Assembly (NCBI GenBank): GCA_036676395.1
Contig: JAKFCY010000003.1
Span: forward strand, 128,001-192,000
Direction of reading: 5' to 3'
DNA: 64,000 bases
Source: Bdellovibrio sp.
GTDB lineage: Bacteria; Bdellovibrionota; Bdellovibrionia; Bdellovibrionales; Bdellovibrionaceae
In this document: piece by piece, positions 62,345 to 64,000 of the stretch
How the letters are laid out: every line of letters starts with the position of its first letter
How positions within the stretch are numbered: position 1 is the stretch's first letter
Notes under the pieces: model-generated
Database searches by the model: none
What the model saw: the letters and a program-made list of their open reading frames with translations, nothing else
Told to the model about the DNA's origin: nothing
Made by a program: the position numbers and the translations under genes

Positions 62345-63265
62345 TTAGCTCTTTTCACGGATTTGATATCCGGCCAATTTTAAAAACACGTCATTTAAAT
62401 TCGCAGCCCGCACATAATAATGTGTGTTCTGAATATGACTTATAAAACTTTGTTTTGATTCGGTAGTTTCAAAAAAGATAAATATGTTGTCTTCATACTC
62501 TTGAAATTTAAGCCCTGCTTGTTCAACTTTACTTAACCAGTAGCCTTTTTCACTGCCGACATGAAGTTCGATCACTTCAGTACCTATATGCTTCAAGATA
62601 AGTTCTTTAGCTGTGCCCTGGTCTAAAATCACCCCATGATCGATCATAATAATGCGATCACAAAGGCGTTCAGCTTCTTCCATATAATGAGTCGTTAACA
62701 CCAGAGTTGTGTTATTCGCTTTTAAACGTTCAAAATAATTCCAAATCCATAAACGCGCTTGTGGATCAAGGCCCGTTGTTGGTTCATCCATTAGAATGAA
62801 TTGTGGTTTATGAATCAGTGCACGGGCGATGGCTAAACGACGTTTCATGCCGCCACTTAACGCTTCAACTTGTTTGTGCTTAAATTCAGATAATTTCATC
62901 TCAGCTAACAAATGTTCAGCTTGAGCATGCGCGAGATCGCTATCCATATTGTGATAGCGTGCGAACAATAATAAATTTTCAAGTGCGCTGAAGTCTGTAT
63001 CTAAGCAGTCGTCTTGTGGCACGACGCCGATGCGTGAACGAATTTGCGTAATATCATTTTTAGTATTTAAACCTAGAACTAATAATTCGCCAGCTGTCGG
63101 AATCACTTGGCCGTAGATCATTTTAATTGTGGTAGTTTTACCGGCGCCGTTAGGTCCAAGAATCCCGACGCATTCACCAGGCTTAATATCAAAAGAGATT
63201 CCGTTAACTACTGGAATACCGTCGTAATTTTTTTTAAGCCCAATGGCATTCAATGCTAAAGACAT
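62345..63265 (-). CDS. ABC transporter ATP-binding protein (NodI-like)
   Basis: GPNGAGKTT, GVVPQ, LSGGMKRR, DEPTTGLDPQAR, TTHYMEEAERLCD. Confidence 0.92.
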   Translation of the reverse strand: MSLALNAIGLKKNYDGIPVVNGISFDIKPGECVGILGPNGAGKTTTIKMIYGQVIPTAGELLVLGLNTKNDITQIRSRIGVVPQDDCLDTDFSALENLLLFARYHNMDSDLAHAQAEHLLAEMKLSEFKHKQVEALSGGMKRRLAIARALIHKPQFILMDEPTTGLDPQARLWIWNYFERLKANNTTLVLTTHYMEEAERLCDRIIMIDHGVILDQGTAKELILKHIGTEVIELHVGSEKGYWLSKVEQAGLKFQEYEDNIFIFFETTESKQSFISHIQNTHYYVRAANLNDVFLKLAGYQIREKS

Positions 63266-63396
63266 GACATAAGACTAACAGTGGATAAACCTAACAGCAA
63301 TTCCATGTTCGCCAATAACTTCCGGGGATTTTAAGTCCCTACCTTGGTCTTGATTACAAATCAAAATCTAGGAGTAAACGTGCAGAATCTAGATGG

Positions 63397-63507
63397 CTAA
63401 ATACTTTTAATAACTATGACAATCATTAAGATCATCATAATTAATCGCAAAATTTCTTTAGAAATACTTAAAAGGCGACGATAACGTAAATACTTTGGTT
63501 TACGCAT
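63397..63507 (-). CDS. 36-aa cationic/hydrophobic peptide, candidate type I toxin (below ORF-track cutoff)
   Basis: MRKPKYLRYRRLLSISKEILRLIMMILMIVIVIKSI*, preceded by AAGGAGG 6 nt before the ATG. Confidence 0.7.
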   Translation of the reverse strand: MRKPKYLRYRRLLSISKEILRLIMMILMIVIVIKSI

Positions 63508-63546
63508 GTCGAACCTCCTTCCGCAAATCGGAAGTTTGGCATAACT

Positions 63547-63588
63547 AAAAAGCTGTTAGGCTATCCGTCTAGCAGCTTTTGCATTTTT
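63547..63588 (+). terminator. Hairpin/terminator, candidate 3' end of an antisense RNA
   Basis: AAAAGCTGTTAG-GCTATCCGT-CTAGCAGCTTTT followed by GCATTTTT. Confidence 0.55.
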
Positions 63589-63600
63589 AAGGCCTTAAAA

Positions 63601-63634
63601 TAAAAAACCCGGTTATTACACCGGGTTTTTATTT
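63601..63634 (-). terminator. Rho-independent terminator after typA (bidirectional form)
   Basis: AAAAAACCCGGT-N6-ACCGGGTTTTTAT. Confidence 0.88.
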
Positions 63635-63659: not shown

Positions 63660-64000
63660 TTAGTCTTTGTTAGATTTTGCTTGTTTAGGGCGTTTGTGTG
63701 GATCTAATTCTTTTAAACGTAGACGAATCGATTTTGGAGTCACTTCGATAAGTTCTGTTTCTTTGATCCATTCCATACCAAATTCTAAAGTCATTGGTTT
63801 AACTGGAGTAACACGAATTGCTTCGTCTGAACCAGACGCACGAACGTTCGACATTCTTTTTGCTTCTTGAATGTTAACGATCATATCGTTGTCTTTAGCA
63901 TTTTCGCCTACGATCATACCTTCGTAAACAAGGTCGCCGTCATTCACGAACATTCTGCCACGTTCTTGCTTATTCCAGATCGAGTAAGCATTTGCTTCAC
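63660..64000 (-). CDS. typA: Translational GTPase TypA/BipA, C-terminal part (truncated by window end)
   Basis: QERGRMF, VYEGMIVGEN, NVRASGSDEA, EVTPKSIRLR. Confidence 0.93.
   Translation of the reverse strand, partial: EANAYSIWNKQERGRMFVNDGDLVYEGMIVGENAKDNDMIVNIQEAKRMSNVRASGSDEAIRVTPVKPMTLEFGMEWIKETELIEVTPKSIRLRLKELDPHKRPKQAKSNKD

Follow-up and report, generated by a model that had tools for sequence, protein, structure and literature searches.

A putative type I toxin-antitoxin-like cassette between typA and an ABC-2 exporter operon in Bdellovibrio

The locus and the layout of the module

Downstream of typA and ahead of an ABC exporter operon, the window (the whole stretch of 64,000 nucleotides of Bdellovibrio DNA that was analysed) carries a module of 316 nt on the minus strand (63282..63597), which comprises a 5' block, a leader, a 36-codon open reading frame (ORF) and a structured 3' untranslated region (UTR). 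One flank is the end of typA, which lies on the same strand, encodes the C-terminus of TypA and stops near 63660. The typA terminator (63603-63630), a symmetric hairpin that is bidirectional and flanked on either side by runs of A and T, ends only a few bases before the module starts. The counterpart copy in a related genome (G016) is placed in the same way after its own typA terminator, and in several other copies a terminator adjoins the 3' end of the module. The other flank is a NodI/NodJ-like ABC-2 exporter (minus strand, start at 63265), whose ATPase gene begins 16 nt downstream of the module in the same orientation. The stretch from the module end to this gene (63265-63282) contains neither an SD-like sequence nor a terminator. 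Because there is no terminator, the module transcript may read into the exporter operon in the window copy.

Read along the putative mRNA, the module begins with a conserved 5' block of the pattern GG-N9-TGCA (GGCCTTAAAAATGCA; 63580..63594, minus strand), which was delimited in an alignment of 72 modules and is a candidate sigma-54 -24/-12 promoter or contains a -10-like AAAAAT. Immediately behind it comes a hairpin (63548-63580) that, together with a T-tract, would form an intrinsic terminator on the plus strand (63548..63590) for an antisense RNA that covers the leader and the start of the ORF, as indicated by a terminator scan and covariation. The loop and the right arm of the same hairpin, plus GCCAAACUUCCG, make up the 5' strand of a predicted long-distance interaction (63529..63566, minus strand; minimum-energy fold, RNAalifold and RNAduplex). 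It is followed by an anti-SD CUUCCG, a loop and CGGA-AGGAGG (63514..63534, minus strand; sequence and fold of the truncated RNA), which includes the Shine-Dalgarno (SD) sequence at 63519-63514, and by the ORF with its stop codon (63397..63507, minus strand; ORF list, copies and dN/dS).

The 3' UTR contains a second anti-SD-like element, CUCCU, 22 nt past the stop codon (63370..63374), a hairpin UUGAUU-UGU-AAUCAA (63351..63365; RNAalifold helix, columns 246-264) and its most conserved stretch (63319..63348), which stands out by cross-family identity and holds the hairpin GGGA-CUUAAAA-UCCC (63339-63325). The 3' strand of the long-distance interaction and the module end (63283..63324; repeats, RNAalifold, RNAduplex and fold) complete the module; all of these elements lie on the minus strand. 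Every sequence feature that an earlier, sequence-only reading of this DNA had named was found in its place. At other loci and in other genera, 86 distinct modules have the same layout, and the features therefore exceed chance.

The encoded peptide

The minus-strand ORF (63507..63397) encodes a peptide of 36 amino acids, MRKPKYLRYRRLLSISKEILRLIMMILMIVIVIKSI, with a basic N-terminal half (net charge about +7) and a hydrophobic C-terminal half. Its length is exactly 36 codons in 14 of the 16 copies that were collected first, the remaining two being truncated, and the family peptides range from 30 to 43 amino acids across the extracted modules. Of 53 diverse members, 90% or more retain each of the residues Y6, R10 and R11, and the SD and the ATG are conserved across modules. 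Comparison of 91 copy pairs gave a mean pS of 0.57 and a mean pN of 0.25, while the median dN/dS is 0.31, with values below 1 in all 79 computable pairs. Variable sites at codon positions 1, 2 and 3 number 27, 14 and 29 of 36, respectively. Judged by these comparisons, the ORF is a real gene under purifying selection with a fixed length.

Several synonymous sites are unusually fixed as well: codon 8 is CGT in 34 of 36 arginines, codons 9 and 16 end in T in all 49 cases, and codon 17 is AAA in 41 of 42 lysines. Part of this fixation fits a predicted CGUAAA/UUUACG hairpin just past the start codon.

AlphaFold, provided with a 14-row alignment, predicts a single helix that spans residues 4-35 (mean pLDDT 85). 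The small peptide with a basic and a hydrophobic part that had been described from the sequence is borne out by this predicted helix, by the charge split and by the conservation of the family. The run of hydrophobic residues is short, and the C-terminal half of distant members is amphipathic rather than clearly membrane-spanning. With 36 amino acids, the peptide falls among the small (<60 amino acids) hydrophobic or membrane-active peptides that characterize toxin-antitoxin (TA) systems of type I.

The peptide of the window copy matches no Pfam family at E<=10 and no NCBIfam entry, none of 14 family members matches a toxin family, and the ESM Atlas returned nothing informative, its best score (0.83) being to unnamed clusters. 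When the peptide profile was compared with 1.84 billion cluster representatives, 29 clusters were found at E<=0.001, including seven at E<=1e-10, and none of the ten matching clusters that were looked up carries a name. The earlier statement that the peptide could not be assigned to a known family agrees with the Pfam and NCBIfam searches, and also with a search of Rfam.

Copies, relics and distribution

The genome contains a second copy on another contig, which is 86% identical over 63281-63588. A profile search revealed a third, divergent paralog (G000:C3:85516-85860, plus strand) with the same 5' block, hairpin and anti-SD/SD arrangement and a peptide of 40 residues; the sequences of its hairpin and of its 3' partner differ from those of the window copy. 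Genomes of the same genus carry several copies each, and these have unrelated flanks. Overall, 86 distinct modules with a start codon were collected from Pseudobdellovibrio, Bdellovibrio and relatives, along with six further profile matches that lack one; the copies are related, and their counts overstate independence. Copies decayed by frameshift, truncation or internal deletion are frequent. A metagenome-assembled genome of the Bdellovibrionaceae has three modules in tandem, about 356 nt apart, of which the third contains an ORF of 71 residues instead of the usual 36. A miniature derivative lacks the ORF, and there the conserved 3' UTR motif comes almost immediately behind the 5' block and the beginning of the hairpin.

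Of 301 genomes of the order, 52 had a match to a narrow peptide profile; the window's genus contributed 17 (of 25 genomes), and a genus with complete genomes of 3-4 Mb contributed 16 (of 38). With a broader profile, matches appeared in 41 of 401 genomes from the phylum; 40 of these, this genome included, belong to the order, and the about 299 genomes outside it yielded one weak match with an internal stop. The 3' UTR motif was also searched in one genome for each of 185,579 species, which gave ten loci. Nine of them are of the Bdellovibrio type and are labelled Pseudobdellovibrio, Bdellovibrio, Bdellovibrionaceae, Bdellovibrionales or Bdellovibrionota, and no module surrounds the tenth, in Bradyrhizobium. 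A 30-nt stretch of the 3' UTR is 100% identical in the genome of another family. Neither the peptide pattern in IMG/VR nor blastn against PLSDB found anything. Across these collections, the module appears essentially restricted to Bdellovibrionales, and sequence comparison identifies the region as a single representative of a self-contained cassette that occurs in multiple copies on the chromosomes of this order. Its behaviour resembles that of chromosomal TA loci because there are two copies and a paralog in this genome, up to 13 profile matches per genome, a tandem array, decayed copies and unrelated flanks.

The same distribution bears on the relation between the module and the exporter genes. 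A leader or attenuator (an upstream ORF) that is specific to the ABC-2 exporter operon would fit the short distance to the ATPase gene, the shared orientation, the missing terminator and the fact that the module occupies the same position in two related genomes. However, the typA-ABC locus accounts for only the window copy and the counterpart in one relative (plus one deleted copy) among the 86 modules, all others have unrelated flanks, and a close relative retains the operon with a mere relic of the module. This reading is already contradicted by where the modules occur, and we regard it as highly improbable.

The close relative in question (G018) also sets the edges of the module (63282-63597), in addition to nhmmer. 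At both orthologous loci (the typA locus on C11, and C1:565240-565380) it holds deletion relics, in each of which the 5' block or short internal fragments are left after two internal deletions; elsewhere, it has two intact copies of another subgroup. Since both loci hold relics, neither a clean empty site nor a target-site duplication was found, and the two junction pairs examined show no such duplication. These observations are relevant for a MITE-like, non-autonomous mobile element, in which the repeats would be transposase-binding ends and the ORF incidental. Such an element would account for the sharp edges, the multiple copies and their unrelated flanks, for inverted-repeat ends that co-vary, and for ORF-less or internally deleted derivatives that retain both ends. 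Yet about 30 conserved nt lie beyond the left repeat, the seemingly empty sites are relics of double internal deletions, and the viral and plasmid collections contain no match. The sequence-only reading had named genome-wide recurrence as a MITE with target-site duplications as evidence against a TA module; the element does recur, but no duplication accompanies it, its ORF of fixed length is under purifying selection, and the G.U pairs of its long-distance helix lie on one strand. A mobile element of this kind is improbable in our judgement.

The fold of the mRNA and the pairing of the SD

The RNA corresponding to the minus strand from 63577 to 63282 has a predicted minimum energy of -91.8 kcal/mol (z = -6.0), and none of 200 shuffles is as stable. 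Two inverted repeats constitute the closing long-range helix of this fold, an outer one (63283-63298 vs 63552-63566, 9 nt exact, extended) and an inner one (63311-63324 vs 63529-63540, 8 nt exact, extended). Both had been described as nested repeats before; the outer 5'-3' helix proved to be universal, whereas the inner repeat is kept solely in the closest subgroup.

For 13 copies, RNAalifold chose the long-distance helix, with compensatory changes in 11 of 42 predicted pairs. The 3' end of the module is complementary to the loop and the right arm of the 5' hairpin, and the partner sequences are entirely different between lineages while their complementarity is retained. When the first 44 nt were paired by RNAduplex with the 300 nt past the stop codon and compared with 100 dinucleotide shuffles (p<=0.05), 63 of 74 modules had a helix better than the shuffles, at a median z of -3.5 and with truncated copies among the failures; the window copy reached E -38.1 and z -4.7. 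The fold-back of the 5' leader onto the 3' end is therefore supported by the fold of the window copy, by RNAalifold covariation and by RNAduplex, and the search for relatives that had been proposed as a check produced the 86 modules, among which the outer 5'-3' pairing recurs.

G.U pairs make up 15% of the long-distance helix. In 52 of 63 modules the mRNA strand gives a more stable duplex than its complement does, and for the module as a whole the mRNA strand has the better fold in 60 of 62. Because a terminal repeat that acts at the DNA level would lack such a bias, the strand preference of the G.U pairs argues for an RNA feature of the mRNA strand.

The SD AGGAGG (63519-63514) is located 6 nt 5' of the ATG. 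A local hairpin formed by CUUCCG (63534-63529) and CGGAAG (63523-63518) is present in the fold of the 3'-truncated RNA, and the local folds of 76 of 83 modules pair 3 nt or more of the SD with a CU-rich anti-SD located a few bases upstream. The sequestration of the SD in a local hairpin, as suggested earlier, is thus seen in the fold of the truncated RNA and recurs among modules. Across the folds of 62 modules, the probability that the SD is unpaired averages 0.12 for the full-length RNA and 0.11 without the 3' strand. Its partner in the full-length folds is the upstream anti-SD in 27 modules, a site within the ORF in 16 and the CUCC of the 3' UTR in 16, and the SD is mostly unpaired in three. 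Truncation shifts the partner from the 3' UTR to the upstream anti-SD in several modules of the Bdellovibrio type. These models describe a putative toxin mRNA that would be held untranslatable by its own fold. That the SD is predicted to stay paired after removal of the 3' strand counts against the reading as a TA module.

The anti-SD CTCCT that had been noted past the stop codon is indeed present, as CUCCU at 63374-63370, and a CUCC soon past the stop codon recurs in modules of the Bdellovibrio type. The 3' UTR hairpin at 63351..63365 retains its pairs in 13 of 13 copies, with G.U variants (RNAalifold), and a GGGA-loop-UCCC hairpin is found in many modules. The window copy of the latter (63325-63339) shares 13 nt, loop included, with the anticodon arm of tRNA-Leu(UAA) (G000:C2:1752567-1752658). 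Mimicry of a tRNA was considered and rejected, as the loop varies (CUUAAAA, CUUUAAA, UUUAAAA, CUCUAAA) and ARAGORN recognizes no tRNA in five loci. A REP-like repeat was likewise dismissed, because the module hairpin is absent from the genome outside the copies.

The plus-strand hairpin and a putative antisense RNA

A terminator scan of the region found two sites (shuffle mean 0.5), including a plus-strand hairpin at 63548-63580 with a T-rich tail. The hairpin co-varies across 82 distinct rows: 87.6% of the cells are paired, compared with 59.7% in shuffles (0 of 500 as high), a result that is somewhat favoured because the alignment was fitted to seven of the ten pairs. Controls in which the pairing was slid gave 28-59%, and double-sided changes occur in all ten pairs. 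When the cells that are not Watson-Crick pairs are read on the mRNA strand, A.C or C.A (48) outnumber G.U (20), and of the 57 distinct hairpin variants 29 contain A.C and 13 contain G.U. The sole C.A mismatch on the minus strand of the window copy is a U.G pair on the plus strand. Over the 8 nt past the stem, the antisense direction has on average 4.8 T and the sense direction 2.9, and the antisense value is higher in 76 of 82 rows.

As an A.C on one strand is a G.U on the other, the hairpin is best preserved on the plus strand. The terminator-like hairpin that had been postulated there is consequently upheld by the scan, the covariation, the wobble bias and the T-tract. The long-distance helix and this hairpin show opposite wobble biases within the same sequences, which excludes base composition as their cause and provides indirect evidence that both strands may be transcribed. 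The 5' hairpin is best read as the terminator of an antisense RNA, and we infer a plus-strand RNA that runs over the ORF start, the SD and the leader and ends at 63583-63590.

A search for a sigma-70 promoter of this RNA placed the best matches at codons 21-27 in 29 of 83 modules, where AT-rich codons confound the signal. Two soil metatranscriptome runs from two studies contain one contig each, at 63384-63540 and 63371-63524 (157 and 154 nt), which cover only the part with the ORF and the SD and share two differences, at 63418 and 63420; as contigs from a multi-copy element that carry neither strand nor ends, they are no proof of transcription. The attack-phase small RNAs of B. bacteriovorus in Table 2 of PMC3627812 do not overlap with modules in the searched Bdellovibrio-type genomes, among which strain HD100 may be missing. 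Rfam has no match at the gathering score, and none of its 35 sub-threshold matches is meaningful; weak ones to ohsC (20.6 bits vs 50) and AgrB (30.4 vs 40) both lie on the typA terminator.

These data have to be weighed against a gene for a non-toxic small membrane or cationic protein, which would be controlled by the structure of its own mRNA without an antisense antitoxin. It could be sigma-54 dependent or specify a dual-function RNA, and the plus-strand hairpin would then insulate it from convergent read-through. The conserved ORF and mRNA structure, the negative search for an antisense promoter and the terminators that are encoded in the flanks behind many modules are all compatible with such a gene, and conservation is higher in the 3' UTR motif than in the peptide, possibly a sign that the RNA acts in trans. 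Nonetheless, the terminator is fixed within the cassette at every locus, whichever genes are its neighbours, and multi-copy spread, tandem arrays and frequent inactivation are expected of addictive or selfish loci and not of a housekeeping function. We consider a non-toxic protein rather unlikely.

The conserved 5' block and its possible promoter function

A scan of both strands for sigma-70-type promoters gave no match (shuffle mean 1.9), in line with the previous failure to recognize a clear promoter for either RNA. The 5' block has the consensus (A/T)GG(C/T)N(C/T)N-AAAAA-TGCA-AAAG. In the TGCA-anchored alignment, G occupies the two GG positions in 76% and 97% of the modules, and T, G and C follow with 100, 97 and 82%. 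The spacing GG-N9-TGC is invariant in 72 of 72 modules, and upstream of the block nothing is conserved beyond A/T richness.

According to PMC3844500, the core of sigma-54 recognition is formed by a GG at -24 together with a TGC at -12; among the Salmonella sites in its Table 3, those of fdhF, hycA and zraP have A-rich spacers and ATGC. The GG/TGC spacing of the module equals that of the sites in this table, and the genome encodes rpoN together with about 12 strong matches to activators. Several observations speak against a sigma-54 promoter: the first G is replaced by A in 22% of the modules, the A of the canonical TGGCAY is A in only 26%, a subgroup with a C->A change (18%) reads TGA, and the canonical sites of the genome itself follow TGGCAY-N5-TTGCT (14 strict matches). 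We therefore treat the assignment of the 5' block to sigma-54 as a serious but doubtful possibility. With such a promoter, the mRNA would start near 63569, so that its beginning coincides with the 5' strand of the long-distance helix. Only the antisense RNA would then contain the left arm of the hairpin, and this would explain the opposite wobble bias of the hairpin.

In a more far-reaching version, the cassette would be a portable gene for a type I toxin that brings its own sigma-54 promoter, and the antitoxin RNA would terminate inside the opposed promoter. We put this forward tentatively, and as a whole it is rather unlikely. If true, it would represent the first type I TA family in Bdellovibrionota. 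A sigma-54 promoter would link toxin expression to enhancer-binding proteins, so that the toxin would stay silent unless an enhancer-binding ATPase fires, and it would possibly tie expression to the life-cycle switches of the predator. We know of no type I TA family that is driven by sigma-54.

Proposed mechanism and significance

The features described above probably belong to a new, previously undescribed type I TA-like family, as far as sequence comparisons can tell. In the mechanism that we propose, the fold of the full-length mRNA would keep translation silent, and translation would require that the 3' strand be trimmed or opened, as in hok and aapA1. A plus-strand RNA would be transcribed across the ORF start, the SD and the leader, with its end at the conserved hairpin and the U-tract behind it (63548-63590). 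It would serve as the antitoxin through base pairing with the mRNA, and the peptide, when made, would damage the membrane.

With a well-delimited family among predatory bacteria, type I TA systems would be known from a wider range of hosts. Moreover, the opposite wobble bias of two overlapping helices allows a purely computational inference of transcription on two strands, which may be reusable for other elements.

Comparison with known systems

To our knowledge, type I TA systems have been described almost only in Enterobacteria, Helicobacter/Campylobacter and Firmicutes. The T1TAdb paper (PMC8594479) lists 24 type I TA families, and the words Bdellovibrio and Deltaproteobacteria are absent from its text. 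Supplement file 5 of Fozo et al. 2010 gives 0 type I loci for B. bacteriovorus HD100, and the supplements of that study, one file apart, contain neither of the strings YLRYRR and YLRIRR. No description of the module family was found in literature searches on type I TA systems or on antisense and small RNAs in Bdellovibrio.

Bacterial MITEs include Correia, ERIC and RUP elements. Like these, the module is short, multi-copy and intergenic, often lies beside terminators and has inverted repeats. It differs by a coding ORF under selection, by RNA pairing that is strand-specific and by the lack of a visible duplication. In addition, MITEs have terminal inverted repeats at both extreme ends, whereas the left repeat of the module is not terminal but lies about 30 nt inside the edge.

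The hok mRNA encodes a small hydrophobic peptide, its 5' region pairs with its 3' end in the tac/fbi fold-back, and its SD is occluded. The module resembles hok/Sok of plasmid R1 and of enterobacterial chromosomal loci in having a small hydrophobic peptide, 5'-3' pairing and an occluded SD, and also in its occurrence at multiple chromosomal loci with decayed copies. An antisense RNA over the leader, which is inferred for the module, would correspond to the layout given for hok/Sok in PMC8594479. Unlike hok/Sok, the module has no Hok_Gef domain and no conserved overlapping frame like mok, to which translation of hok is coupled; the ORF lists of 16 copies contain only upstream extensions in frame, and these are not conserved. 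Its peptide has a strongly basic N-terminal half, and the host group is another one. The antisense RNA of the module would furthermore end inside the promoter block, and the promoter may be of the sigma-54 type.

With aapA/IsoA of Helicobacter pylori, the module shares the approximate size of the toxin (about 30 amino acids) and a 5'-3' interaction that would lock the full-length mRNA. The several successive anti-SD partners of the module recall the metastable, successive anti-SD hairpins of aapA1 (PMC6733600). The proposed antisense RNA would overlap the 5' UTR and the ORF start, as it does in aapA/IsoA according to PMC8594479. In contrast to aapA/IsoA, the SD of the module is still paired in the folds after 3' truncation, the 3' UTR elements differ and the family is confined to Bdellovibrionales. 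With no Hok domain, mok-like frame or match to an Rfam antitoxin, the module appears, on these criteria, to lie outside the hok/Sok and aapA/IsoA families. Its 86 natural variants of one RNA architecture would provide a covariation data set for the 5'-3' lock of the hok and aapA type.
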